DNA of 30,320 bases from a virus (Duplodnaviria; Heunggongvirae; Uroviricota; Caudoviricetes). A program made the position numbers and the translations under genes. A model generated the notes under the pieces. The model had not been told where the DNA came from. It did no database searches and was given only the letters and a program-made list of their open reading frames with translations. Each line of letters begins with the position of its first letter. The first letter of the stretch is position 1. The stretch lies in IMG/VR virus record IMGVR_UViG_2663762810_000003. One strand, written 5' to 3'. Shown piece after piece: positions 9,258 through 30,320 of the stretch.

Positions 9258-10622
9258 TTATTTTATAGTCATATTAGCTATTGATGTGGAAATATTAAAG
9301 ATATGGTTATATTCAAACGCAAAATCACCTTCTATACGCTGAACATAACTTCCCTTTTCATTACGTAATAGTTTTAATGTTTCTTTATCGATGTAATAAT
9401 AATCCAATAGTTCTTTAAGCAATTTAATTTCCGTCTTTGATGAAAAATAATCAGATTTTATATTAAGTAATTCTAATATCTCTTCAGAAGACATTTCCTT
9501 CTTAAGTAGTCGATTTAACATATCTGGAGAAGTTACTTTCAAGAAACAAACCAATGCTAATGCAATCATATAATAATTATCATCATTATTCGCTATACAC
9601 GTATGATTATCCACTACAAGCATAGTTGAAATACATCGTTCAACTTCTCGCAGCGAGCAATTATTGGTTTCAATCAAGCATGATAAGACTCTTACAAAAG
9701 CACCATCTGTATTAATACCTAGAGAGTGATTCTGTTGTAGAGTTTTTTTAATATACGTTGTAATCGTTGTTTTGTTAGATGCTTGTAACACCATAGAGTC
9801 ATACACATTTATTTTGGGCAAAGAAAACCAATAATGAATAAATTTATTCAAGTACAGACCAGTATTGATATCACCATATTTATATGCAATTCCCTTTTCA
9901 AATTGCTCTCGATTCATTACCAATAAGAAAACCATACCTTTCACAGAAAAAAGATGCTTAATTTTTTCCAATAGCTCTAGAGAATAATCTGGGCGGGCTC
10001 GATCAAGTTCATCAATAATAATCAAGGTTTTTCTCTTTGTATTTGTATATATTTCTTCTAAAGCTTTTTTAAAGTCAGCAATTGAGTTTTTTTCCTGCTC
10101 CATGGATTTTATTTTCTCTTCAACAAAAGACTCTAACTCACTATTAATGGAATCGCTAACTGTTTTTCCTGCCTCATCAAGAGCAGAACCATTCACAACA
10201 CCTGCTGTCAGGGTTGTAATAGCTACCTTTGCACCTCCGATTAATATTTTTGCACCTATTTTCTTACCAGTTTTAATAATGCGATCAGCTACATCTTCGG
10301 CCTCTACTCCTCTGTGTTTTAGTAAATTATATAGTTCAGATGATATTGAAATAAATGGATCTGATTGATAATCATTTTCAAATGCATCGAAATAAACAAC
10401 ATCTATATATTCACTATTAGTTAATTCTAATTCTGATTTTAACATCTTAACAAATGATGTTTTACCGCTACCCCATATATCATCTAACGCAAAAACCAAA
10501 TTTGAGTCAGGAGCATTAATAATAAGCCGTATCATTTGATCATATAATGTCTTACGATTAAATATGTCAGATGTAATATCAAAACCATTCTCAAAACCAT
10601 TCTGATTAGTAGTTATATTCAT
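9258..10622 (-). CDS. KAP-family P-loop NTPase, solitary cargo in the accessory locus between A and portal Q
   Basis: 454 aa; modified Walker A ALDDIWGSGKTSF; hydrophobic insert AKILIGGAKVAITTLTAGVV; Walker B LIIIDELDRARPDY; gene and flanks are markedly AT-rich. Confidence 0.8.
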   Translation of the reverse strand: MNITTNQNGFENGFDITSDIFNRKTLYDQMIRLIINAPDSNLVFALDDIWGSGKTSFVKMLKSELELTNSEYIDVVYFDAFENDYQSDPFISISSELYNLLKHRGVEAEDVADRIIKTGKKIGAKILIGGAKVAITTLTAGVVNGSALDEAGKTVSDSINSELESFVEEKIKSMEQEKNSIADFKKALEEIYTNTKRKTLIIIDELDRARPDYSLELLEKIKHLFSVKGMVFLLVMNREQFEKGIAYKYGDINTGLYLNKFIHYWFSLPKINVYDSMVLQASNKTTITTYIKKTLQQNHSLGINTDGAFVRVLSCLIETNNCSLREVERCISTMLVVDNHTCIANNDDNYYMIALALVCFLKVTSPDMLNRLLKKEMSSEEILELLNIKSDYFSSKTEIKLLKELLDYYYIDKETLKLLRNEKGSYVQRIEGDFAFEYNHIFNISTSIANMTIK

Positions 10623-11475: not shown

Positions 11476-12522
11476 TCAGGATGTGGGCTGGATGTCTAAC
11501 AGTGCGTAAGGGTTAAAGCGGATCACCTCTTCGCCAAGCCAGTCATTGATGTGCTTCATGGCCTCCATGACGGGCATCAGCTCGTTAATTGCGTAAACCC
11601 GCGCGGCCTTCTCCACATCACCAAACGCACTTTTTTCACCCGGCATCGCCCCCATCAGTTGCGGCGGAACGCGGTGCGCAGCCAGCACATCATCACGGGA
11701 TGCCGCCTTAACATTCATGAACTCATCCTTTGCGGTGATCTGCTGGAACGGCAAAATTTGCACCCCCTCTTTGCCCCCGTTGGGCGCATGAATGAGCACG
11801 TTTTTAAACGCACCGCCACCACGTGCACCCTGTAGCGTTTCTTTCAGGGAGTCCATGCTTTCGCGGTTTACCTGCGCTGCACCGATGTAGATGATGCACC
11901 CGGCGTGGGATCCGTTGTCGTAATACAGTTTTCTGAACATGTCCGCCGAATGAGACAGGCTGGCCGAGAGTAATGCGCCGAGATATTCCGGCATGCCGTA
12001 GATTTCCTGGTTAATGTCAGGATTCATCAGGTGGCACACTTTGCCAGGGCGAAACTGAAACGCGTCCTTACCATCCTGCACATACCACCATGATTCAAGA
12101 TCGCTTCCGCGTCGCATGTATTTCGCCAGGGCGTGCCGTAATTTAAGCGGTTCGCCGAGCATATTGCTTCGAAGCTCAAGGAATGCGTTACCGAACACAA
12201 ACCAGTCCAGCGCCAGCGCCGAGAAATCCTGCCGGGAAAGCAGCGGGTGCGGAATATAGCAACCGAGCAATACATTGCGCTTAAAGTAAAGCGCAGACTG
12301 ATGCCAGGACGTTTGCCGGGCAGCTCTTGCCAGACCGTACCAGTCCACCGGGGTTTCATACCACCGCCCGTTATCAGCACAGTACATATTGTCCAGCAAA
12401 TCATGCCCGGTCAGGCGATAAGGACCATCAAATGTGAATGCACTGAGCGACGATTCTTTCCTGAGCGCATCAGCGAGATCAATGCGTGAACTCATGCGCA
12501 CTTTTTTATTTTTTCTGCTCAT
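11476..12522 (-). CDS. Q: portal protein gpQ
   Basis: 348 aa, recognised as P2 Q-like; immediately downstream of P on the same strand. Confidence 0.9.
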   Translation of the reverse strand: MSRKNKKVRMSSRIDLADALRKESSLSAFTFDGPYRLTGHDLLDNMYCADNGRWYETPVDWYGLARAARQTSWHQSALYFKRNVLLGCYIPHPLLSRQDFSALALDWFVFGNAFLELRSNMLGEPLKLRHALAKYMRRGSDLESWWYVQDGKDAFQFRPGKVCHLMNPDINQEIYGMPEYLGALLSASLSHSADMFRKLYYDNGSHAGCIIYIGAAQVNRESMDSLKETLQGARGGGAFKNVLIHAPNGGKEGVQILPFQQITAKDEFMNVKAASRDDVLAAHRVPPQLMGAMPGEKSAFGDVEKAARVYAINELMPVMEAMKHINDWLGEEVIRFNPYALLDIQPTS

Positions 12523-14192
12523 CAGAACTCCATAACCGTGAAACGCTCGTTTTCTCCTTCGCCGCCAATCGGTTCGTTAATGACAGCAAGCATGGTTGCC
12601 CACGCAAGGTCGCCGTGGCTGATCCCCCTCGCGCGGTCCGTTTCGTAAGTGATAAAGCCGCCCGGTGTTTTCACCTTACGCACGGCGTTAAAGGCCGCGA
12701 CCAGCTCGCGTTCGGCGCGATCGTATTCCCACCGCCCGGCACGCATTATTTGCAGCATTTTCAGTACCAGCGACCGTTTTGATGACAGCGTGAAGGTGTA
12801 CGGAATAGCAGCAGGGAAAAACCGTTTCACTATCTGATAAACAGCCTCCCCGTTCCCGCCCGTCACATCAATGCCGATGTGTTCCACGTTGTAGCGATAC
12901 GTGAACTCTTCAATGACTCTGGCCTGTTCTTCAAACTCCAGCCCCTGAACGCGTCGCGTCTCCACCGTTCGAAAACGGCCACCAGGAACAGCCGGAGGAA
13001 CCACCACGGACACTGCGCCGCTGTCGCCGTTTCCACTGCTGCCGTTTGCGTCATACCCAATCCATACCGGACGATTCCCCATCGGGCGGGGAGCAAAAGG
13101 TTTCCAGTCTTTCCAGTCGTCGTATCCGTCAACACCGCAGCCAATCAGGATATTCAGGTTAAATGCCGATTCCCCTTCGCGGACAAACTCACACATATAG
13201 AGATTGAGGAACTCGTCTTCGGTGTTTTCATCACGAATTTCGTCGATATCGGTGTGTTTCCAGCCGTGATTAACCACATCTTCCAGCGTGACAATTTGCC
13301 GCCACGTCCGGTCAGGGCAGATAAGCCCGTTATGCAGCGTTTTCCAGTCCACAGAAAAACGCTGGCGTTTATGCGAGGCCTTTTTCTCGTTCCAGCGGTC
13401 GCCGTTCCAGTAGGCGTATGCCTCGTGCGTTTCGGTGGATGGCGTGGAGAAGTAGGTGCGCCGCAGTCCGCTGAGGGTTGCCATAGCGCCAGCCACCTTG
13501 CGCAGTTCAGCAAAGCGACTGACCCAGAAAAATTCATCAAAATAAAAATTGCCCGTATAGGACTGTGCCGACGCAGCAGAAGTGCCGAGAAAATGCAGCT
13601 CTGCGCCGTTGGAGAGGATGATTTTATCGCCCCCTTTCAGCTCCACATCAACTTCAGCCGCGGCCTTCTGAATAATGCTTTTAAACTGGAACGCCTGACG
13701 ACGCGACGCAGACAAAAAAATCTGGTTACGCTGGTAAGGTTGCGCCACATCGTCACGCAGCGCCATCAGCAGTGCTTCCTGTGCAAAATACCAGGTCGCC
13801 CCAATCTGTCGGGATTTCAGGATCATCCTGTTACGTATCCCGGCTTCCCTGCAAAGGGTCAGGGAGTCAAACCAGCCCCGCTGATGCCACTCCAGCCTGC
13901 TGATGATTTTTTCCCGCAGTGCGGCAATCTGTTCCGGCGTGAAATGATTTTTGAGTTTTTTCGCCCGGCCTTTCTTTCCTGCGGCCATCACATCCGGCTG
14001 ACCATCATGCAGCTTTTTAAGCTGCCGGGTCAGCAGGTCTATTTCCTTAAAGTCACCGCCTGTTTTATTCTGTTTTTCAGTAAGCTGGATGAGGCGCGCA
14101 TCGATGGACTGCGTGACACGCTGCACGGGTGGCGTTTCATCCCACTGGTCACGTTTTTTCCACGCATAAATCGTGTTCGGGTTTATTCCCAT
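12522..14192 (-). CDS. P: terminase ATPase (large) subunit gpP, probably 5'-truncated at a rearrangement junction
   Basis: 556 aa against about 590 aa recalled for P2 P; no SD before the first ATG; in-frame stop 12 codons upstream; F-plasmid-like DNA begins within about 10 bp. Confidence 0.85.
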   Translation of the reverse strand: MGINPNTIYAWKKRDQWDETPPVQRVTQSIDARLIQLTEKQNKTGGDFKEIDLLTRQLKKLHDGQPDVMAAGKKGRAKKLKNHFTPEQIAALREKIISRLEWHQRGWFDSLTLCREAGIRNRMILKSRQIGATWYFAQEALLMALRDDVAQPYQRNQIFLSASRRQAFQFKSIIQKAAAEVDVELKGGDKIILSNGAELHFLGTSAASAQSYTGNFYFDEFFWVSRFAELRKVAGAMATLSGLRRTYFSTPSTETHEAYAYWNGDRWNEKKASHKRQRFSVDWKTLHNGLICPDRTWRQIVTLEDVVNHGWKHTDIDEIRDENTEDEFLNLYMCEFVREGESAFNLNILIGCGVDGYDDWKDWKPFAPRPMGNRPVWIGYDANGSSGNGDSGAVSVVVPPAVPGGRFRTVETRRVQGLEFEEQARVIEEFTYRYNVEHIGIDVTGGNGEAVYQIVKRFFPAAIPYTFTLSSKRSLVLKMLQIMRAGRWEYDRAERELVAAFNAVRKVKTPGGFITYETDRARGISHGDLAWATMLAVINEPIGGEGENERFTVMEF

Positions 14193-14201
14193 CAGACGTG
14201 A

Positions 14202-14399
14202 TATTTCTGCGGGCGGATAGAAGCGCAGTCAAAAGCCCTTTCAGCGCGTTTTAACACGGCACTGGAAGCCAGCCTGCAGGCGTGGCAGCAGAAACACCAC
14301 GCAGTCATTCTGGTGTCGCCTGCTGTGGTACAGGGGGCACCGGATATCACCCGGGAAATCCAGCAGGATATTGCCCGGCGAATGAGGGCGGAGCCATGA
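14202..14399 (+). pseudogene. trbI: 3' fragment of an F-type conjugation gene, consistent with trbI (reading frame opens at the junction)
   Basis: Open frame ending ...DITREIQQDIARRMRAEP, with its TGA overlapping the traW ATG (ATGA) as in the F tra operon; identity from memory. Confidence 0.5.
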
Positions 14400-15028
14400 G
14401 ATGCCGGGGGCTGATTGCCCTGCTGATATGGGGGCAGAGTGTGGCCGCCGCCGATCTTGGTACCTGGGGCGATCTGTGGCCGGTAAAGGAGCCGGACATG
14501 CTGACGGTGATCATGCAGCGCCTGACGGCACTGGAGCAGTCCGGTGAGATGGGCCGGAAAATGGATGCCTTTAAGGAGCGGGTGATCCGCAACAGTCTGC
14601 GGCCCCCTGCCGTGCCCGGTATCGGACGCACGGAGAAATACGGCAGCCGGTTGTTTGACCCGTCCGTCAGACTGGCTGCGGATATCCGGGATAACGAAGG
14701 GCGGGTGTTTGCCCGTCAGGGAGAAGTGATGAATCCGCTGCAGTATGTTCCTTTTAACCAGACGCTGTATTTCATCAATGGCGATGATCCGGCGCAGGTG
14801 GCCTGGATGAAACGCCAGACGCCGCCCACACTGGAGAGCAAAATTATCCTCGTGCAGGGCAGTATCCCGGAGATGCAGAAGTCTCTGGACAGCCGTGTTT
14901 ACTTTGACCAGAACGGTGTGCTCTGCCAGCGCCTCGGCATTGATCAGGTCCCGGCACGGGTGAGCGCCGTTCCCGGCGATCGCTTCCTGAAGGTGGAATT
15001 TATTCCGGCAGAGGAGGGCAGAAAATGA
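14396..15028 (+). CDS. traW: F-type conjugative transfer protein TraW (full length)
   Basis: 210 aa starting MRCRGLIALLIWGQSVAAADLGTWGDLWPVKEPDMLTVIMQRL, recognised as F TraW; the track ORF from 14282 is an upstream over-extension. Confidence 0.75.
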   Translation: MRCRGLIALLIWGQSVAAADLGTWGDLWPVKEPDMLTVIMQRLTALEQSGEMGRKMDAFKERVIRNSLRPPAVPGIGRTEKYGSRLFDPSVRLAADIRDNEGRVFARQGEVMNPLQYVPFNQTLYFINGDDPAQVAWMKRQTPPTLESKIILVQGSIPEMQKSLDSRVYFDQNGVLCQRLGIDQVPARVSAVPGDRFLKVEFIPAEEGRK

Positions 15029-15192
15029 AGCGAAGCCTGTGGCTGCTGATGTTATTCCTTCTCGCCGGTCATGTCCCTGCAGCGTCTGCGGATTCTGCCT
15101 GTGAGGGGCGTTTTGTAAACCCGATCACGGATATCTGCTGGAGCTGTATTTTCCCGCTCTCGCTGGGCAGTATCAAAGTCAGTCAGGGTAAC
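15025..15192 (+). pseudogene. traU: 5' fragment of F-type traU (about 56 codons), truncated at the junction back into phage DNA
   Basis: MKRSLWLLMLFLLAGHVPAASADSACEGRFVNPITDICWSCIFPLSLGSIKVSQG matches the recalled TraU N-terminus, then diverges and stops at 15243. Confidence 0.65.
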
Positions 15193-15272
15193 CGAACCCA
15201 CACAGAATATGGCCATCAGCGACATACAGGCGGCGCGCTGTGAGTCGTTCACCATCAGCGAAGGTGGGCGCA

Positions 15273-15803
15273 ATGAGTAATTCACTGTTACCACCATCAG
15301 CCAGCAGTTTCATGCGTTGTGCCGAAGCTGTCGGAACGCGCATTACAGACATCCCGGTAGACCTCAACACGCTGTGGTCGCCGGACACCTGCCCGGTGCA
15401 CCTGCTGCCTTATCTCGCCTGGGCATTTTCCGTTGACCGTTGGGATCGCAACTGGCCGGAAGAGGCAAAACGACAGGTGATTCGTGATGCATGGCTGATA
15501 CACCGACACAAAGGGACCATCAGCGCACTGCGCAGGGCCATTGAGCCGCTGGGATACCTCATTCGCGTGTCTGAGTGGTGGGAGTTCGGCGGAGAACCGG
15601 GAACATTTACCGTTGAAGTCGGCACACTGGACAGTGGCGTGACGGAGGAAATGTATCTGGAAATGGAGCGGTTGATTGCTGATGCCCGTCCGGTCAGCCG
15701 CCACATGACAGGGCTGAATATCATTCAGGAAATTCCGGGGGATATTTTTGCAGCGGCGGCAACTTATGACGGTGAAGTTATTACCATTTATCCGGACGAT
15801 TAA
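15273..15803 (+). CDS. I: baseplate assembly protein gpI
   Basis: 176 aa from the ATG at 15273 (MSNSLLPP...), same length as P2 I; conserved WSPDTCPVHLLPYLAWAFSVDRWD; stop abuts the H start. Confidence 0.85.
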   Translation: MSNSLLPPSASSFMRCAEAVGTRITDIPVDLNTLWSPDTCPVHLLPYLAWAFSVDRWDRNWPEEAKRQVIRDAWLIHRHKGTISALRRAIEPLGYLIRVSEWWEFGGEPGTFTVEVGTLDSGVTEEMYLEMERLIADARPVSRHMTGLNIIQEIPGDIFAAAATYDGEVITIYPDD

Positions 15804-15805
15804 GC

Positions 15806-18034
15806 ATGAGTACCACAACACGAAAATTTAAAACCGTTATCACCGATACAGGTGCCAAAAAATTAGCTCAGGCAGCCGCGCCAGATGGTAAGCCTGTTCG
15901 CCTGACTCATATGTCCGTGGGCGACGGTGGCGGCACGTTGCCCACACCAGACAGTAAGCAGACCCGTCTGGTGCATGAGGTGTGGCGACACACAGTTAAT
16001 CGCGTCATCCTGGACGCAACACATCAGAACCGCATTATTGCGGAGCTGGTTATTCCTCCTGAAACGGGCGGATTCTGGATCCGGGAAATTGGTGTATTTG
16101 ATGAGCACGGCGATTTAATCGCGGTGGGCAATACTGCCGAAAGTTACAAGCCAGCCGTTGCTGAAGGGTCCGGTCGTGCACAAACATTTCGCACCATTCT
16201 GACCGTATCCAGCACGGCCACCGTGGCGCTTACCGTGGATAACACCATGGTGATGGCCACAGTGGATTACGTGGATGACAAACTGAAAGAGCATGAACAG
16301 TCACGACGTCACCCGGACGCCTCGCTGACCGCAAAAGGCTTTGTTCAACTCAGTAGCGCCACTAACAGCGTGTCTGAAACGCAGGCTGCAACGCCGAAAG
16401 CGGTTAAGGCCGCATATGACCTGGCTAACGGAAAATATACCGCTCAGGACGCCACGACGGCACGAAAAGGCCTTGTCCAGCTCAGTAGCGCCACCAACAG
16501 CACGTCTGAAACGCAGGCTGCAACGCCGAAAGCAGTAAAGGCCGCGTATGACCTTGCTAACGCAAAATATACCGCTCAGGACGCCACGACGGCACAAAAA
16601 GGGATAGTCCAGCTCAGTAGTGCCACCAACAGCACGTCTGAAACACTGGCCGCGACATCGAAAGCGGTTAAGGCGGTAATGGATGAAACGAACAAGAAAG
16701 CGCCCTTAAACAGTCCTGCGTTGACCGGAACGCCAACAACGCCAACTGCGCGACAGGGAACGAATAATACCCAAATCGCAAGCACGGCTTTCGTTATGGC
16801 TGCGATTGCCGCCCTTGTAGATTCGTCACCTGACGCACTGAATACGCTGAACGAGTTAGCGGCGGCGCTGGGAAACGACCCGAATTTTGCGACCACCATG
16901 ACTAACGCGCTTGCGGGTAAGCAACCGAAAGATGCCACCCTGACGGCGCTGGCCGGGCTTGCTACTGCGGCAGACAAGTTTCCGTATTTTACGGGGAATG
17001 ATGTCGCCAGCCTGGCAACCCTGACAAAAGTCGGGCGGGATATTCTTGCGAAATCGACCGTTGCCGCCGTTATCGAATACCTCGGTTTACAAGAAACGGT
17101 AAATCAGGCTTCTGGCGCATTACAGAAAAACCAGAACGGCGCAGATATTCCAGGAAAAGATACCTTCACAAAAAATATTGGTGCATGTCGCGCTTTTCAC
17201 AGTGCTATTAGTACAGGGGCAGGGAACTGGACAACGGCACAATTGATTGAATGGCTGGATTCTCAAGGGGCATTCAATCACCCATACTGGATGTGCAAAT
17301 GTTCATGGTCATACGGCAATAATAAAATTATTACCGATACTGGCTGTGGAACTATTCATCTTGCAGGTTGCGTTATTGAGGTTATGGGTAATAAAGGTGC
17401 CATGACCATCCGTGTAACAACACCAAGCACTTCCACCGGAGGCGGCACCACTAACGCTCAATTCACTTATATTAATCATGGTGATGCTTATGCTCCTGGC
17501 TGGCGAAGAGACTACAACACGAAAAACCAGCAGCCTGCATTTGCTTTAGGGCAAACAGGAAGCAGGGTTGCAAATGATAAAGCTGTTGGCTGGAACTGGA
17601 ATAGCGGCGTTTATGATGCAGATATCAGTGGCGCATCGACATTAATCCTCCACTTTAATATGAATGCGGGGAGTTGCCCTGCTGTACAGTTCCGCGTGAA
17701 TTATAAAAACGGCGGTATCTTTTATCGTTCAGCGCGTGATGGTTATGGCTTTGAAGCTAACTGGTCAGAGTTTTACACCACAACCCGCAAACCCTCTGCG
17801 GGGGATGTTGGTGCATATACGCAGGCAGAATGTAACTCAAGGTTTATTACAGGTATTCGCCTGGGCGGTCTGTCATCTGTTCAGACATGGAATGGTCCCG
17901 GCTGGTCTGACAGGTCAGGTTATGTCGTTACAGGTTCAGTTAACGGAAACCGTGATGAATTAATTGATACAACACAGGCAAGGCCAATTCAGTATTGCAT
18001 TAATGGAACGTGGTATAACGCGGGGAGTATTTAA
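15806..18034 (+). CDS. H: tail fibre protein gpH (constant N-terminus plus invertible C-terminal variable part)
   Basis: 742 aa; N-terminus matches the P2 H pattern ([16 protein letters not shown]...HEVWRH...IAELVIPPE); crossover site lies inside the gene at 17070-17095. Confidence 0.9.
16346..16690 (+). repeat. tandem 132-bp (44-aa) repeats, about 2.6 copies, inside H
   Basis: Unit starts at 16346, 16478 and 16610, encoding [44 protein letters not shown]. Confidence 0.8.
17070..17095. other. left 26-bp invertase crossover site (gix/hix-like), TTATCGAATACC-TC-GGTTTACAAGAA
   Basis: Inverted match to the right site at 20129-20154; inverted homology continues inward to about 17152. Confidence 0.6.
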
Positions 18035-18036
18035 TC

Positions 18037-18570
18037 ATGATGCACTTAAAAAACATTACTGCTGGCAATCCTAAAACGAAAGAACAATACCAGCTAACAA
18101 AGCAATTTAACATCAAATGGCTTTATTCAGATGATGGAAAAAACTGGTATGAGGAACAAAAGAACTTTCAGCCTGATACGTTGAAAATGGTCTATGACCG
18201 TAACGGCGTTATTATTTGTATTGAAAAGGATGTTTCAGCAATTAATCCAGAAGGCGCAAGCGTCGTTGAGGTTCCTGATATTACAGCAAATCGCCGGGCT
18301 GATATTTCGGGTAAATGGATGTTCAAAGATGGCGTAGTGGTAAAGCGAACTTATACCGAGGAAGAGCAGAGGCAGCAGGCGGAAAATGAAAAGCAAAGCC
18401 TGCTACAGCTCGTCAGGGATAAAACCCAGCTATGGGACTCACAGCTACGGCTGGGCATCATTTCCGACGAGAATAAACAAAAATTAACCGAGTGGATGCT
18501 CTATGCGCAGAAAGTCGAATCTACAGACACTTCCAGCCTGCCAGTAACGTTTCCCGAACAACCAGAATGA
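18037..18570 (+). CDS. G: tail fibre assembly chaperone gpG
   Basis: 177 aa; immediately after H; homologous to the minus-strand 18598..19125 product. Confidence 0.85.
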
Positions 18571-18597
18571 GGCAAGGCCCGCTATCGGGCCTTAATT

Positions 18598-19125
18598 TTA
18601 CTCTGGTTTTTGTGGCCATTCTGGCTTTGCCGTATCCACACGGCTGACCAGAACACTGTAGCGTTCCCATGCTTCCAGTCGTGTGCGCTCCTCGTCTGTT
18701 GCCATATTCAGCCTGACAGCGCGTTCCAGCGGCTGGATGACTGATTCAGCTTCGGAAAGCAATGCGGCCTTTTGTAATTCGGCCTGTTGTTGCTGTTCGT
18801 CTGCCGTATAAATCCGTTTAACTACAGCTCCATCCTTAAACATCCACTTACCGGAATCATCAGCGCGGCGGTTGGCTGTAATATCGGGAACCTCAACGAC
18901 GCTAAAACCTTCAGGGTTAAGCGTGGAGGCATCTCTAGTGATGGCGACAATAATATTATTTGCATCGTAAACAATCTTTATTGTGTCTGGCTGAAAGTTT
19001 TTCACTTCCTCATACCAGTTTTTTTCGTCCTCGGAGTAAAGCCAGATGACTCCGTGCTTCTTTGTTAACTCATACTGTTCCAGTGTTTTAGCGTTACCCG
19101 CTTTTATGTTCTTTAAGTGCATCAT
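18598..19125 (-). CDS. alternative tail fibre assembly chaperone (G')
   Basis: 175 aa; same MMHLKNI...NWYEE...[13 protein letters not shown]...GKWMFKDG pattern as G with a divergent C-terminus. Confidence 0.85.
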
Positions 19126-19126
19126 A

Positions 19127-20104
19127 TTAAACGCTCGCTACATTATACCAAGTGCCATTTATATACTTTTGAACGGGTCTGTAATAAACGCCCGCTATAT
19201 TATCGGCAGAATTGGACCCTGTATCCTGAACATTAATACCAGACAATACATGACCTGACGGGCACTGGAAATTCCATGTTTGCCAGTTGTTCACTCCATA
19301 ATATTGCTGTGAACCAAGTCGAACATCTTTCACATAACGGGAATCAAAGTTACCGTAATCTGAGGGATTAACACGACCTGTAATATTTATGGTTTTATTA
19401 CTTTGAATACTGCCGGAGACAAAGCGCATAACATGGACGTTATTAGCATAAACATCCAGATACCCGTCGCCATTTTGTTTAAATCCCGTGTCATTATCAC
19501 CCAAAACAATCGAGTTACCACCAAGAGCACTGGATGTTCCGATGCCCAGTGCACCATTCAATTGACCGCCAGATAATGACAACGCCCCAACCTCAGCAGC
19601 AGTCGGTTTAATGTGCGAACTGTAAATTACATATACAGTTCCATCTGTCAGGCCTGTTGGTTTATTCGCTGTATAAGTTGGTGATGTATGAATCGTTACG
19701 CTGGCGTTACTGGTATAATCCCACTGAATATTAACACCTGTGGCGTAATTACCTATTTCAACATAAACATCATAGGTATCACCGGATGTATTCACCCATG
19801 CAAAATTAGTAAATCCAACCGAGGTCCGTCGCCATAATGCACCAGTAATACCTTTTGGATTTCCATTTCCGGCACGCAGAACCAGCTCAGAGATGCCTGC
19901 TTGATGCGGGGAGCCAACGTTAAACCCTGCGCCACCAATCAGGCTTATGTAAACCACGGAACTGGCTTGTGGCATTGTTACAGTTGCCAGTTTGAACCAT
20001 CCTGCACCACCATTAAAAGACATGGTTGTTGAATTTGTTGCTCCAATATTGCGCAGGAATAATCTTTTATCAGGAATATCTGCGCCATTCTGGTTTTTCT
20101 GCAA
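19127..20104 (-). CDS. alternative tail-fibre C-terminal variable segment (Sv'), without its own start; would be expressed after inversion
   Basis: Begins [10 protein letters not shown], the same residues as H around 17130; the frame continues upstream into the inverted repeat. Confidence 0.75.
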
Positions 20105-20128
20105 CGCACCAGAAGCCTGATTTACCGT

Positions 20129-20154
20129 TTCCTGTAAACCGAGGTTTTAGATAA
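20129..20154. other. right 26-bp invertase crossover site, TTCCTGTAAACC-GA-GGTTTTAGATAA
   Basis: Near-identical to the Mu gix-type site as recalled; inverted match to 17070-17095. Confidence 0.6.
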
Positions 20155-20208
20155 TGGCCGTTTCTGACCTGCATGGCATGATTTACGCTTTTGGACGGGA
20201 GATTCAGC

Positions 20209-20796
20209 GTGCTGATTGGCTATGTAAGGGTATCAACAAATGACCAGAATACAGACCTGCAACGAAACGCTCTTGTTTGTGCAGGATGTGAACAAATATT
20301 TGAAGATAAATTAAGCGGGACAAAGACAGACCGACCGGGATTAAAACGCGCTTTAAAGCGTCTTCAAAAAGGTGACACGCTGGTTGTCTGGAAACTGGAT
20401 CGCCTCGGGCGAAGCATGAAACATCTGATTTCTCTCGTCGGGGAACTACGGGAGCGAGGGATTAATTTTCGCAGTCTGACCGACAGCATAGATACATCTT
20501 CTCCAATGGGGCGTTTTTTCTTCCACGTGATGGGTGCCCTGGCTGAAATGGAACGTGAATTAATTGTTGAACGTACACTGGCCGGACTGGCAGCAGCGCG
20601 CGCACGGGGGCGCACAGGCGGACGTCGCCCGAAGCTGACAAAAGAACAGCATGAGCAAATAGCAAGGCTGATTAAAAACGGTCACGACAGAAAACAACTG
20701 GCAATAATTTACGGCATTGGTACATCGACGATTTATCGTTACCACCCCGCAGGAGAATCAAGCGGAACAATAGAGAAGAGTCAGAAAACAAAATAA
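20209..20796 (+). CDS. DNA invertase, serine recombinase of the Gin/Pin/Cin/Hin family
   Basis: Probable GTG start at 20209 (MLIGYVRVSTNDQ); in-frame ATG at 20191 is an alternative; catalytic-Ser N-terminus and C-terminal HTH (GTSTIYRY). Confidence 0.9.
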   Translation: MLIGYVRVSTNDQNTDLQRNALVCAGCEQIFEDKLSGTKTDRPGLKRALKRLQKGDTLVVWKLDRLGRSMKHLISLVGELRERGINFRSLTDSIDTSSPMGRFFFHVMGALAEMERELIVERTLAGLAAARARGRTGGRRPKLTKEQHEQIARLIKNGHDRKQLAIIYGIGTSTIYRYHPAGESSGTIEKSQKTK

Positions 20797-20826
20797 CCGC
20801 TAATCTGACCATTAGCGGTTTTTGTG
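20796..20826 (+). terminator. rho-independent terminator after the invertase (ACCGCTAAT loop ATTAGCGGT, then TTTTTGT)
   Basis: Perfect 9-bp stem followed by a T run, directly after the stop codon. Confidence 0.5.
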
Positions 20827-20831
20827 TTAAA

Positions 20832-21326
20832 TCAGAACAGCCCTTTAACTGAACTGGCCGCGCTGTTAAGAGATGATGTCACCTTATCTTTGAAGCCGGA
20901 CAGCATATCGCTGAACGATGAGGATTGCAGGCGCTCCCGCAAATCCTCATCACAGCGTTCAAGGGTCAGTGAAAATTCTATCTTTTTCGCCTTACCGTAG
21001 CGATCAAACTCGGAACGGGTCGTATTCGTTCCGGTCAGGACATACATGCCGTAAATCTGCCCGACACCATCAATCAGAGGCCAGGGGCGTCCTGTATATG
21101 CCTGCGTGGTCAGCAACGAAAGCGACACTTCGCCACCTGTAATTTCAGGATAAAGCACACCAGAAAGAACGATGCGATCATCGCCTGCCCCGATATACTG
21201 CCAGCTTGCTGAACGGTTAACGCGTTCATTTTTCACATGCCGCCAGCTTTTGTTTTGCTGTAACTGCTGATGCGGCAACGTGCGCAGCTCAAAAACAAAC
21301 ATGCCGTAGATCATCATCATGGCCAT
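20832..21326 (-). CDS. U: tail protein gpU
   Basis: 164 aa, recognised as P2 U-like; immediately downstream of T on the minus strand. Confidence 0.85.
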   Translation of the reverse strand: MAMMMIYGMFVFELRTLPHQQLQQNKSWRHVKNERVNRSASWQYIGAGDDRIVLSGVLYPEITGGEVSLSLLTTQAYTGRPWPLIDGVGQIYGMYVLTGTNTTRSEFDRYGKAKKIEFSLTLERCDEDLRERLQSSSFSDMLSGFKDKVTSSLNSAASSVKGLF

Positions 21327-26564: not shown

Positions 26565-27674
26565 ATGACCGACACCACCATGCAATTGCTCAGTCAGGGC
26601 ACAGACCCCGTGAAAATGCCGGATTTTGATATTCTCGCGGAGGGTAAAACGCTGTCAGGCGTGGCAGAGCGCCTGATGAGCCTGTCACTGACCGACAACC
26701 GGGGATTTGAAGCGGACCAGCTCACCATCACGCTGGATGATGCGGATGGTCAGTTGCAGCTACCGCCACGGGGCGCGCGCCTGACGGTTCTCATTGGCTG
26801 GAAAGGAGAACCGCTGACAGAAAAAGGCACTTACATTGTTGATGAAATCGCTCACGAAGGACCGCCGGACAGGCTGACTGTTTCAGCCAGAAGCGCAGAT
26901 TTCCGGGATGAATTTAACGTTAAACGTGAGGTGTCCTGGCATGATGTGACCGTTGAGCGTGTGGTATCCGCCATCGCTCATCGGTATGGTCTGAAACCGC
27001 AAATCAGCGAAATGCTGATGGATATCGAAATCGACCACGCCGACCAGACCGAAGAAAGCGACATGTCCTTCCTTACGCGCATGGCGGAAATGCTGGGCGC
27101 AATCACCACGGTAAAAAGCGGTAATCTGTTATTCATCATGCCCGGCGGTGGCGTGAACGCACAGGGCCAGCCGTTGCCATCGTTCGCCATCACACGCAGT
27201 AGCGGCGATCGCCATCAGTTCCGCATTGCTGACCGCGAGGCGTATACGGGGGTACGCGCTTACTGGCTTGATCTTAATTACGGGAAAAAGAAAAAAGTCA
27301 GCGTGAAACGCCGCAAACCGCCACAACCGAAAAAAGAGAAAAGCAGCAGCCGTGAAGGTGATTATATGGAAGGCGCGGAAGGCAATGTGTTTGTGTTACG
27401 CAAGACTTATCAGAACGAGCAGGCAGCAAGACGCGCAGCGGCGGCAAAGTGGCAACAACTACAACGCGGAGCCGCATCATTCTCCATCACGCTGGCACGT
27501 GGACGAGCAGAACTCTACCCCGAAATGCATGGCACGGTAACAGGATTTAAAAGCGAGATTGATAATCAGGACTGGATTATTGCAAAAGCCGAGCACACCA
27601 TTGATAACAGCGGCTTTACCACGCAGCTTGAGCTTGAGGCAAAAATCCCGGAATGGATAGCGGAAACAGAGTGA
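26565..27674 (+). CDS. D: tail protein gpD
   Basis: 369 aa from the ATG at 26565 with GGGAGGGAA SD; the track ORF from 26433 over-extends; P2 D-like. Confidence 0.85.
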   Translation: MTDTTMQLLSQGTDPVKMPDFDILAEGKTLSGVAERLMSLSLTDNRGFEADQLTITLDDADGQLQLPPRGARLTVLIGWKGEPLTEKGTYIVDEIAHEGPPDRLTVSARSADFRDEFNVKREVSWHDVTVERVVSAIAHRYGLKPQISEMLMDIEIDHADQTEESDMSFLTRMAEMLGAITTVKSGNLLFIMPGGGVNAQGQPLPSFAITRSSGDRHQFRIADREAYTGVRAYWLDLNYGKKKKVSVKRRKPPQPKKEKSSSREGDYMEGAEGNVFVLRKTYQNEQAARRAAAAKWQQLQRGAASFSITLARGRAELYPEMHGTVTGFKSEIDNQDWIIAKAEHTIDNSGFTTQLELEAKIPEWIAETE

Positions 27675-27716
27675 GCAACTTAGAATAGCGGCAGCACCAC
27701 GTTAAAGGAGGTCGCT

Positions 27717-27977
27717 ATGTTCCGTTGTCCGCTTTGTGGCGCATCTGCCCGTATCCGCACCAGTCGTCCGGAAAATGATTCAAACACCGTGCGGCAAAAG
27801 TATTACCAGTGTAACAACCTGGAATGCGGCGTATGCTTCTCAACACTGGAAGCTTTCCATAAATTCACATCGAAACACGCCTCCGGCGTTCACTCATCAG
27901 AAGGTATCCCGTGGCATGAGCTGCCAGCTTCACACAGGGGAAACAATCAGATGAGTTTGCCTTTACCTCAGAATTAA
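27717..27977 (+). CDS. ogr: Ogr-family zinc-finger late-gene activator
   Basis: MFRCPLCGASARIRTSR...YYQCNNLEC resembles P2 Ogr (MFHCPLC...RTSR...QCQNVNC); 86 aa, longer than P2 Ogr. Confidence 0.7.
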   Translation: MFRCPLCGASARIRTSRPENDSNTVRQKYYQCNNLECGVCFSTLEAFHKFTSKHASGVHSSEGIPWHELPASHRGNNQMSLPLPQN

Positions 27978-28166
27978 CAGGCAGAATTGCCGGAGTAACA
28001 AAAAAGCGATAGATTACGTGCGGGTGCCTTTCGGCTGATGGTCGGAGGGAATACCCGAAGGCCGGATGTGGAAAGGCCCCGGAAAACATTTCTGTTTAAC
28101 CGAGGCCCTAACCCGTCAACCTAGCAAGTGATAGGTTAGCGCCTCTCCAACAAAGGAGCAAGCGCT

Positions 28167-28307
28167 ATGTCGCAAAAATCGCTTACGGCCATCACGTTCT
28201 GCGTGACGGTAATCCTCATCATCTGGATGCTGCACGGTTCGCTGTGTGAAATACGGATGAGCTTCTGGGGAGCGGAGTTTGCGGCGTTCTTACAGTGTAA
28301 GCAGTAA
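28167..28307 (+). CDS. Hok/Gef-family type I toxin (46 aa)
   Basis: MSQKSLTAITFCVTVILIIWMLHGSLCEIRMSFWGAEFAAFLQCKQ; hydrophobic helix then SLCEIR and AAF as in Hok/Gef; AAAGGAG SD; below the ORF-track cut-off. Confidence 0.6.
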   Translation: MSQKSLTAITFCVTVILIIWMLHGSLCEIRMSFWGAEFAAFLQCKQ

Positions 28308-28395
28308 GGAAACCGCGACGGGGAGGCAACTCCCCGTCAATCGGTTGCTAGGGTAAGGCCGATAAGGCACCCTATCTCATAGGCATGAATAACAA

Positions 28396-28428
28396 CCCCG
28401 CAGCGTAAAAACTGCGGGGTTTCTTTTT
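28396..28428. terminator. stem-loop terminator (CCCCGCAG / CTGCGGGG, then TTTCTTTTT) between the convergent hok-like gene and 28497..28778
   Basis: 8-bp GC-rich stem followed by a T run on the plus strand. Confidence 0.55.
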
Positions 28429-28496
28429 GGAACTCTCACTAGCTAGTGAGCCGTTAACTGCACATAATGCTCGCACAACAAATCAGTTAAAAGAGA

Positions 28497-28778
28497 TTAC
28501 TCAGCATTCTCCTGCTTCCATTGCCGGATCATTTCATCGGTAACATCACTTTCATAACATACCACGTCATACCCTCCAGTACGGCTATATGCACTGCGTC
28601 CACCACATCTACTACCATTCCTTGCATGATTATACGGACACGCACAATTGCCTGGATAAGATTCAATGGATTCTTTAATTATTTCTTTCTTGATCTGAGC
28701 ATCTGACTTTCCTGTTGCTGCATACCCACTAAAAGATACCAAACAAAGGCAGATTGCCATTAATAAACCACATCGCAT
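28497..28778 (-). CDS. small Cys-rich secreted protein (start at MRCGLL; upstream in-frame ATG at 28892 is an alternative)
   Basis: Signal-like MRCGLLMAICLCLVSFSGYAATG, then GNCACPY...RCGG...VVCYE; AT-rich; no clear SD. Confidence 0.4.
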   Translation of the reverse strand: MRCGLLMAICLCLVSFSGYAATGKSDAQIKKEIIKESIESYPGNCACPYNHARNGSRCGGRSAYSRTGGYDVVCYESDVTDEMIRQWKQENAE

Positions 28779-29251
28779 ACCGATACACTCTATTACTAAC
28801 CAATCATAGCCCACATCATAAAATCGAGATGAGGAGTACAACACCTTTAACAAGAAGGTGCCATCACGATAATATGCCGTGCAATTCATCAAAAAAAAGA
28901 TCTATATCAAAGAGATAGAGTTATTATCAGTGCTGCAGACATCAGCATTCGAGGCAGCAGAAAGACAGTAAATCTAACGAATTTGTCTTTTTCTCAGGAT
29001 GTTGTCAGATTAAAAAAGATAGAGTAGCGCAGACACCTTTTGGTGGATGGTAGGAGGAAAAATGAAGTTGAGTGGGAAGATCCCAGAAAAAACTTTGGTT
29101 TAACCAAGGCCCTAGTTCAATATGCGAAATGCAGATGAGTTGCAGGAGAGTTTTGCTTCACCCTTAGAGTTTAAACAGACGTGTACTATCATTATTTCTG
29201 CATATCGCCACACCATCGCCACTTTACCGCCATTTAACAAAATACAAATAC

Positions 29252-29274
29252 AAAAAACCACCCGAAGGTGGTTT
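29252..29274 (-). terminator. rho-independent terminator of the glyW-cysT-leuZ operon
   Basis: On the minus strand: CCACC-TTCG-GGTGG followed by a T run, about 45 nt past the leuZ 3' end. Confidence 0.5.
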
Positions 29275-29317
29275 CACGACACTGCTTATTGCTTTGATTT
29301 TATTCTTATCTTTCCCA

Positions 29318-29404
29318 TGGTACCCGGAGCGGGACTTGAACCCGCACAGCGCGAACGCCGAGGGATTTTAAATCCCTTGTGTCTACCGATTCCACCATCC
29401 GGGC
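29318..29404 (-). tRNA. leuZ: tRNA-Leu (anticodon UAA), 87 nt with long variable arm
   Basis: Reverse complement reads GCCCGGATGGTGGAATCGGTAGACACAAGGGATTTAAAATCCCTCGGCGTTCGCGCTGTGCGGGTTCAAGTCCCGCTCCGGGTACCA. Confidence 0.95.
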
Positions 29405-29416
29405 TCGGGAAGAAAG

Positions 29417-29490
29417 TGGAGGCGCGTTCCGGAGTCGAACCGGACTAGACGGATTTGCAATCCGCTACATAACCGCTTTGTTAACGCGCC
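29417..29490 (-). tRNA. cysT: tRNA-Cys (anticodon GCA), 74 nt
   Basis: Reverse complement reads GGCGCGTTAACAAAGCGGTTATGTAGCGGATTGCAAATCCGTCTAGTCCGGTTCGACTCCGGAACGCGCCTCCA. Confidence 0.95.
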
Positions 29491-29544
29491 AAATTCTTCA
29501 GGCCTTTCAGCCAGACATCCGCTTGAGGCCGATGTCTTTTAAAC

Positions 29545-29620
<76 letters not shown>

Positions 29621-29693
29621 ATTCATCAAGCAATCAGTTAATCACTTGATTTTATTATCGTCTGGCAATCAGTGCCGCCGTTCGATGCGTTGC

Positions 29694-29720
29694 ATTCTAC
29701 TTACCTGGCGCGATGAGTCA
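29694..29720 (-). promoter_or_regulatory. candidate sigma70 promoter of the tRNA operon (TTGACT, 16-17 nt, TAGAAT on the minus strand)
   Basis: Hexamers read on the reverse complement between pgsA and glyW. Confidence 0.4.
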
Positions 29721-29771
29721 ACGATATTTTTCACCACTTTTGATCGTTTGCTGAAAATTGCGCCGAAACGA

Positions 29772-30320
29772 TCACTGATCAAGCAAATCTGCACGCGCAG
29801 CGCTCAAATATTGCAACATTGACCACAGAGTGAGTACCGCAGCCACAAAGAAAAGTGCAATACCGGCGTACTCAACCCAAATGTTCGGACGCCACAGCAG
29901 CCAGGCCAACGCCACCATCTGGGCAGTGGTTTTCACTTTCCCAATCCAGGAGACAGCCACGCTACTGCGTTTACCCAACTCCGCCATCCATTCGCGTAGC
30001 GCAGAAATAATAATTTCACGGGCAATCATCGTTGCCGCCGGTAAGGTCACCCACCAGCTGTGGTAATGCTCGGTTACCAGCACCATGGCGATAGCCACGA
30101 GAACTTTATCTGCTACAGGGTCAAGGAAAGCACCAAACCGGGTACTCTGGTTCCAGCGGCGTGCCAGAAAACCATCGAACCAGTCAGTCACCGCCGCGAC
30201 GCAGAAAATGAGCGCGGCGGCAAACGGCGACCAGGTGACAGGCAGATAAAAGACCAATACAAAGAATGGGATAAGGATGACACGGAACAGTGTAAGCAAC
30301 GTAGGGATATTAAATTGCAT
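29772..30320 (-). CDS. pgsA: CDP-diacylglycerol--glycerol-3-phosphate 3-phosphatidyltransferase
   Basis: 182 aa recognised as E. coli PgsA ([20 protein letters not shown]...[30 protein letters not shown]); conserved pgsA-glyW-cysT-leuZ synteny; start codon is at the window end. Confidence 0.95.

Follow-up and report, generated by a model that had tools for sequence, protein, structure and literature searches.

Can a prophage that has lost the genes for its own particle still carry an intact switch between two tail fibres? The question is raised by a 30,320-nucleotide (nt) stretch of DNA, IMG/VR virus record IMGVR_UViG_2663762810_000003 (the whole of it is called the window below), which is contig JXWI01000001.1 of assembly GCA_000948905.1 from position 405922 and which holds a P2-family prophage. 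The 3' end of the tail-fibre gene H of this prophage lies in a segment of about 3 kilobases (kb) that is bracketed by two inverted crossover sites and followed by a gene for a serine DNA invertase. DNA inversion systems of the Gin/Cin/Pin/Hin kind are textbook examples and have been known since the 1980s. We conclude that the locus is very probably a canonical two-state Gin/gix-type invertible fibre cassette in a P2-family prophage of an E. coli-type host, vestigial in this copy. The cassette itself is already known, since identical invertases and sites occur in many public genomes and in both orientations. The new point is its context, that of an intact switch in a prophage in which 7.8 kb have been replaced by F-plasmid traW DNA.

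The locus is defined by two sites of 26 base pairs (bp) that resemble gix, the crossover site of phage Mu:

17070-17095, plus strand: left crossover site, gix-like, inside the coding sequence of H, core TC at 17082-17083; it reads TTATCGAATACCTCGGTTTACAAGAA
20129-20154, minus strand: right crossover site, gix-like, plus-strand core GA at 20141-20142; it reads TTCCTGTAAACCGAGGTTTTAGATAA

Taken as an inverted pair, the two sites agree at 23 of 26 positions and their cores, TC and GA, are complementary. Both were compared with the authentic Mu 26-mer, taken from NC_000929 at the annotated boundaries of the G segment. Read from outside to inside, the right site matches Mu gix at 25 of 26 positions and the left site at 23, each with Mu's TC core, whereas the cix sites of phage P1 give a match at only 19-21 of 26 positions and have the core TT. 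A search of the whole window with the Mu 26-mer, allowing up to three mismatches, returned exactly these two sites, and 100 shuffles of the window returned none at the same threshold. Searching with the 13-nt core added one chance-level match, at 29090, outside the prophage. As only two gix-like sites are present in the window, the cassette is a two-site, two-state system. A third, cryptic site of the shufflon-like, multi-state sort (compare enteropathogenic E. coli (EPEC) or p15B) was considered and rejected, as just two sites lie within three mismatches of gix. The sites are enclosed by a 93-nt inverted repeat (17066-17158 and 20066-20158, 88% complementary) that runs inward from the crossover point, and both variable fibre ends therefore start with the same ~22 residues. 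Inverted repeats further inside the segment (18037-18393 versus 18769-19125, 73-76% complementary) are the facing paralogues G and G' and no extra recombination sites.

From core to core the segment measures 3,061 bp, and 3,085 bp lie between the outer edges of the sites. Genes I, H and G are read on the plus strand and are followed by G' and a start-less fibre end on the minus strand, after which come the right site, a spacer of 54 nt and the invertase gene. The genes of the fibre module are as follows:

15240-15803, plus strand: gene I, the open reading frame (ORF) upstream of H
15806-17082, plus strand: Hc, the constant N-terminal part of the tail-fibre gene H, outside the segment and joined to either variable end
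17083-18034, plus strand: Hv(+), the variable C-terminal end now fused to Hc, with 95% amino acid (aa) identity to P1 Sv' and 88% to Mu S'
18037-18570, plus strand: G, the tail-fibre assembly chaperone paired with Hv(+) (Pfam Caudo_TAP, E = 6e-37)
18598-19125, minus strand: G', the alternative chaperone paired with Hv(-) (Pfam Caudo_TAP, E = 3e-37)
19127-20141, minus strand: Hv(-), the start-less alternative C-terminal end, silent in the present orientation

In the orientation found in the window, H is an ORF of 742 aa (15806-18034) that matches PHROG tail-fibre families with E = 5e-208. When inversion between the two cores is simulated, Hv(-) joins Hc in frame and gives an uninterrupted fibre of 763 aa, and the first 449 aa of H are the same in both states. 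Beyond their shared first ~47 aa, Hv(+) and Hv(-) are unrelated except near the C-terminus. The closest phage relatives of Hv(-) are the alternative fibre ends of the Mu-like Yersinia phages vB_YpM_5/6/39 (85% aa identity), and its resemblance to Mu S and P1 Sv is confined to the last ~80 residues. The chaperones follow the same division, with G 97% identical to Mu U' and 95% to P1 U', and G' 91% identical to P1 U, 89% to Mu U and 58% to G. The two states would thus be expected to differ in receptor specificity and adsorption. The constant part of H also contains a 132-nt tandem repeat (16333-16674, plus strand; 2.6 copies, 88% matches) that encodes a repeated 44-aa motif, and a short-read contig from the Logan assembly of this isolate breaks inside it.

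The enzyme that would act on the sites is encoded just outside the segment, together with the elements that would control it:

20155-20208, plus strand: spacer of 54 nt from the right site to the invertase start, presumed to hold the invertase promoter and ribosome-binding site
20209-20796, plus strand: serine DNA invertase of the Din family, intact, 195 aa, with a GTG start at 20209, 54 nt past the right site
20227-20298, plus strand: predicted Fis-dependent recombinational enhancer at the 5' end of the invertase gene (nt 19-90), homologous to the annotated enhancer of P1 cin

An earlier, preliminary description of this DNA had placed two inverted 26-bp sites around some 3.06 kb, with the variable end of H and G on the plus strand, G' and a start-less end on the minus strand, and an invertase gene starting about 55 bp outside the right site. 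Our measurements agree with all of this, including the coordinates of both sites and the right-site sequence with its GA core.

The invertase has the Pfam domains Resolvase (E = 1e-50) and HTH_7 (E = 9e-14), and its residues 1-183 align to the Gin crystal-structure chains 4m6f and 3uj3 with E = 1e-100. Both S9 and M114 are present. In Gin, S9 is the linking serine, that is, the nucleophile, and M114V is a Fis-independent mutant (PMC3575834); M114 is the wild-type residue, and the crystallised Gin mutant has V at this position. Of Gin, Pin and Cin, it is Gin that stands closest to the invertase in amino acid identity (83%), ahead of Pin (78%) and Cin (73%). Within residues 1-120 the invertase shows a single difference from Gin. 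The DNA-binding domain, on the other hand, gives a slightly higher score with Hin than with Gin, and the Q-I-A-R-L of its helix 1 aligns opposite Q151-I-S-R154-L155 of Hin (1hcr). These Hin residues Q151, R154 and L155 are Fis contacts that are uniquely conserved in Fis/enhancer-dependent invertases (PMC3798978). Compared with Mu gin, the gene is a mosaic, with 100% identity over nt 1-90, then 96% and 92%, and 53% over nt 361-540. Its 5' part is gin-like, and its 3' part encodes a DNA-binding domain that resembles that of Salmonella Hin more than that of Gin. Copies of the identical protein are widespread, one example being that in E. coli TUM14668.

The predicted enhancer begins ~85 bp beyond the right site's centre, and nt 19-90 of the invertase gene align gap-free with the enhancer annotated in the P1 cin record. 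By homology, the enhancer is presumably functional and recombination presumably depends on Fis. The spacer is equal in length to that between gix and gin in Mu and ~75% identical to it, with GCATGGCATGATT and GGAGAT as common blocks, and expression of the invertase would be expected. Going by the mechanism of the family, invertase dimers would bind the two inverted 26-bp sites and, together with host Fis on the enhancer at the start of the invertase gene, synapse on supercoiled DNA. Cutting at the TC/GA core, rotation and religation would then flip 3,061 bp. In the present (+) state, Hc is fused to a variable end like those of Mu S' and P1 Sv', and the gene for the U'-like chaperone G comes next. 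Inversion would instead join Hc in frame to a different receptor-binding end, whose closest counterparts are in Mu-like Yersinia phages, with the U-like G' behind it.

Does such a segment really invert? We searched 5,426 complete E. coli genomes, using the real (+) junction and the simulated (-) junction as queries. Full-length matches at a coverage of at least 80% came from 125 genomes for the (+) junction and from 19 genomes for the simulated (-) junction. The cassette architecture is one shared by hundreds of complete genomes, and the number of matching places per E. coli genome has a median of 2 and a maximum of 17. Members of the same lineage (loci L019-L024) were found by exact look-up of the tape-measure protein of the window, which they share in identical form, and their invertase (100% identity) and crossover sites are identical to those of the window as well. 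Among them, L020, L022, L023 and L024 are in the (+) state with the 742-aa fibre, and L019 and L021 are in the (-) state with the 763-aa fibre; the fibre of L019 is identical to the predicted inversion product at 759 of 763 positions. A further locus, L025, appears to be in the (-) state too. In both L019 and L021, an A/G difference at position 23 of the sites is found in the opposite site and the inner half-sites are swapped, which is the pattern expected for exchange at the core. When paired loci were compared over 14,808 bp, a simulated core inversion cut the number of mismatches from 2,182 to 8 in one case and from 2,179 to 8 in the other. The cassette of the window itself differs from that of L022 at 27 positions in 4,991 nt.

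Inversion is also seen in E. coli ATCC 25922, whose 48.5-kb plasmid-prophage has a 92%-identical cassette with an invertase that is a different member of the Din family. Independent assemblies of this strain hold the cassette in opposite states, and CP009073.1, inverted in silico at the TC/GA cores, matches CP158444.1 without a single mismatch over 10,100 bp. In another ATCC 25922 record, NZ_CP032086.1 (94,204 bp, about twice the size of the 48.5-kb plasmid-prophage; loci L007/L008), the (+) and (-) junctions are both present, which suggests a dimeric assembly holding both inversion states. Furthermore, coexisting orientations have been reported in P2-like prophages of EPEC E2348/69, where they were detected from sequencing-read patterns, and in the defective prophage e14 (PMC4272514). 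Judged from these sequence comparisons, the cassette is a genuine, recombination-competent Gin/gix-type switch. Every feature of the Din family (Gin/Cin/Pin/Hin) that lends itself to testing in silico was found, and on those features the cassette is a full member of it. The preliminary description had called it Gin/Pin-type, which is borne out by the alignment of its sites to gix (25/26 and 23/26) and by an intact, Gin-like invertase. It had also held that either fibre variant could be expressed by inversion, which the in-frame simulated fusion and the two states found elsewhere in the lineage support. The findings that it had itself named as telling against it turned out the other way, as the sites match the gix consensus, the invertase is intact and both orientations are seen in lineage relatives.

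A number of observations nevertheless weigh against an active switch in this particular copy. The left site departs from Mu gix at three positions, although recombination in relatives does use the same outer half-site. When the 5' end of the invertase gene was scanned with a relaxed Fis motif, two shared matches turned up at a distance of 72 bp (nt 22-36 and 94-108) and no clean two-site pattern, so that the enhancer assignment rests on sequence identity to gin and cin. A promoter overlapping the right site, as envisaged in the preliminary description, did not emerge, since a sigma-70 consensus scan of 20000-20900 yielded no match for an invertase promoter. A TGgCATGAT-like element conserved with Mu was seen in the spacer by eye only, and we make no promoter claim for it. 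For I-H-G, a promoter scan of 14100-15900 gave no plus-strand candidate. Finally, the NCBI assembly of this isolate shows the (+) state only, and the Logan contig of its sequencing run, SRR1783866, ends before the cassette.

The single state in the assembly and the lack of a consensus promoter in the spacer are what one would see in a frozen relic, in which all parts look intact but inversion has ceased in this isolate, say for want of invertase expression. We consider this unlikely. Lineage members with an identical invertase, identical sites and an identical enhancer region are found in both states, the spacer is conserved with Mu, the deletion described below is private to one isolate and probably recent, and e14, although defective, still flips (PMC4272514). 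As the invertase, the sites and the enhancer are all untouched, the switch in this copy can probably still flip.

What kind of element, then, would be flipping? The host flank, consisting of pgsA and the tRNA-Leu/Cys/Gly cluster, is 99.7% identical to E. coli. By descent the prophage is a member of the P2 family (Peduoviridae, Xuanwuvirus-like), with Xuanwuvirus 503458 as the closest phage record, and it is incomplete, its central morphogenesis block being missing. Genes of P2 type that are present include those for the integrase, gpA, the portal, a truncated terminase, I, H, G, U, T, the E region, the tube, the sheath, D and ogr, and the convergent tail genes U, T, E, tube and sheath lie past a hairpin that follows the invertase gene. 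The interval between the terminase gene and gene I amounts to 1.0 kb in the window versus ~8 kb in intact relatives. Measured against the prophage of E. coli VCSW5, 7,844 bp are missing, a gap that opens at codon 1 of the large terminase and closes 92 nt short of the end of J. The lost block comprises the divergent late-promoter region, the genes for scaffold, major capsid, small terminase, head completion, X, holin, endolysin, lysB/C, R, S, V and W, and most of J. Indeed, among the ORFs of at least 100 aa in the window there are none for capsid, lysis or the V/W/J baseplate proteins. The features at the deletion and at the hairpin are these:

12522-14219, minus strand: large terminase gene, truncated, with its first 18 codons and the upstream promoter region lost and an internal Met giving a 556-aa ORF
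14220-15188, plus strand: F-plasmid trbI'-traW-traU' fragment of 969 bp, 99.6-99.9% identical to IncF plasmids (Pfam TraW_N and TraU)
20795-20820, no strand assigned: bidirectional terminator-like hairpin, an inverted repeat located where the invertase gene meets the convergent gpU-like tail gene

The same 556-aa terminase product is called in some intact prophages, and the protein sequence alone therefore hides the truncation. The tra fragment contains the 3' end of trbI, the complete traW and the first ~30 codons of traU. At each of its two junctions the overlap is just 1-3 nt, and the join between traU and the prophage has created a TraU-J fusion ORF (15025-15243). All native operon DNA upstream of I-H-G has been lost.

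Could the tra fragment, or even the inverted repeats of the cassette, be products of misassembly? The tra junction occurs in none of the 5,426 complete E. coli genomes, and an exact-match scan found the left junction in none of the GTDB representative genomes, which is what an artefact would predict. The Logan assembly of SRR1783866, on the other hand, is 100% identical to the window over 11,880 bp across both tra junctions, and the cassette is present in hundreds of complete genomes. Since an independent assembly agrees at both junctions, the tra replacement is no assembly quirk; misassembly of the fragment was rejected on these grounds, and we hold an artefact of either kind to be extremely improbable. 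The TraU-J/tra chimera is thus a real structure that has been seen in one isolate only (GCA_000948905.1/SRR1783866), and a deletion private to one isolate is probably recent. It may represent an unusual event of illegitimate recombination between plasmid and prophage.

Loss of this block is not confined to the window. In E. coli FORC_031 (L003, NZ_CP013190.1, 2021115-2022708), a related P2-family prophage has a scaffold (gpO) pseudogene joined directly to a J pseudogene, here without tra DNA. As this deletion is independent, loss of the head/lysis/baseplate block recurs in this prophage family. Where the cassette would sit, the FORC_031 prophage has a non-invertible fibre and a serine acetyltransferase.

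The deletion bears directly on what the switch could do. The intact chromosomal relatives VCSW5 and GPT24-02 carry the same cassette in full prophages, with the baseplate genes kept upstream of I, and the cassette of the window is itself complete and intact, so one could picture a viable temperate phage that switches its host range in this way, its progeny bearing one fibre or the other. Such a reading of the window is very improbable. The head and lysis genes, R, S, V, W and most of J are absent, the terminase lacks codons 1-18 and its promoter region, and this deletion structure is reproduced in two assemblies. On its own, the prophage could presumably build neither a capsid nor a baseplate nor a lysis system, and hence no virion; without a virion, flipping would have no host-range consequence for this element. 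The term host-range switch, used in the preliminary description, is therefore right for the kind of element and wrong for this copy. That description was sound on structure and mechanism, and it had missed the loss of the virion genes and of the DNA upstream of I-H-G.

An intact switch in a crippled prophage might also be kept for action in trans. The fibre ends and chaperones, or the Din invertase, could serve a co-resident phage of P2, Mu or P1 type, through phenotypic mixing or through cross-inversion of other Din-type segments, or the cassette could be a recombination reservoir of receptor-binding ends. Five genes have stayed intact despite the loss of virion genes, and E. coli genomes often hold several such cassettes (median 2, up to 17 places). 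Din-family invertases are moreover able to substitute for one another on each other's sites, which would favour action of the enzyme in trans. A recent deletion, however, explains the intactness of these genes equally well, and I-H-G has been left without any native upstream DNA. We therefore think a role in trans, whether for a P2-family or a Mu-like co-resident, a doubtful proposition with little probability, and retain the reading of a canonical cassette whose host-range function is vestigial in this copy.

Among known systems, the G segment of Mu (Gin, gix, sis) is alike in its size of ~3 kb, in its Sv-U/U'-Sv' layout, in its TC core and in its sites (25/26 and 23/26 matches to gix). It is also alike in having the invertase gene just outside the segment, behind a spacer of the same 54 nt and with an identical first 90 nt. 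Mu differs in being a transposable phage, whereas the cassette described here belongs to a P2-family prophage and has a P2 H-like constant fibre part. It differs further in that its invertase has a Gin-type DNA-binding domain, which is Hin-like here, and the second variable end here is unrelated to Mu S except over the last ~80 aa. The C segment of P1 (Cin, cix) follows the same logic, with Hv(+) 95% identical to Sv', G and G' 95% and 91% identical to U' and U, and an enhancer in the same position. In contrast to the window, P1 has a cix core of TT, a segment of 4.2 kb, much longer inverted repeats and an invertase, Cin, that is 73% identical to the one found here. A host-range switch of the Mu G or P1 C type calls for an element able to make tailed particles, and this is where the copy in the window departs from that type.

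In E. coli K-12, the defective prophage e14 with its P segment and pin offers a parallel, namely a Din invertase (78% identical) and a fibre cassette stranded in a prophage that makes no virion, and the e14 segment has been observed flipping in culture (PMC4272514). The differences are that e14 is a lambdoid remnant with other, shorter fibre genes and that a pattern search gave one pix-like site in it. As in e14, host-range switching is vestigial in the copy studied here. The P2-like prophage loci of EPEC E2348/69 (Goldberg et al. 2014, PMC4272514; compared by description) likewise have an invertase and inverted repeats within a fibre gene, but one of these loci has three repeats and four states, whereas exactly two sites are found here. 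Loci L019-L024 are alike in their identical invertase, sites and tape-measure protein, and they end within gene I. The ATCC 25922 plasmid-prophage, with its 92%-identical cassette, differs in its other Din-family invertase and in replicating as a plasmid.

Two other parts of the prophage deserve a brief description. Between gpA and the portal gene, an interval that is a known cargo hotspot of P2, lies a gene for a 454-aa KAP-family P-loop nucleoside triphosphatase (9258-10622, minus strand). Its matches are to the PADLOC candidate defence family PDC-S20 (E = 8e-76) and, less strongly, to PifA and QatA, which makes it a likely anti-phage cargo gene. The right end of the prophage (27600-30320) has ogr/delta-like and hok/gef-like genes, followed by tRNA-Leu(taa)/Cys/Gly (29318-29620, minus strand) and pgsA. 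This integration site at tRNA-Leu/Cys/Gly-pgsA is common to L019, L022 and L023.

To conclude, the practical consequences of these findings concern annotation. Pipelines take the start-less 'partial' fibre gene for a pseudogene, when it is in fact the switch's silent half. The 742-aa and 763-aa fibres are two states of one gene and no strain difference, and this prophage should be marked as defective. Beyond that, a mosaic invertase, a switch that survives in a dead prophage and a patch of F-plasmid DNA are small curiosities of the locus. For the family, it adds one more case like e14, in which the inversion system outlives its phage.

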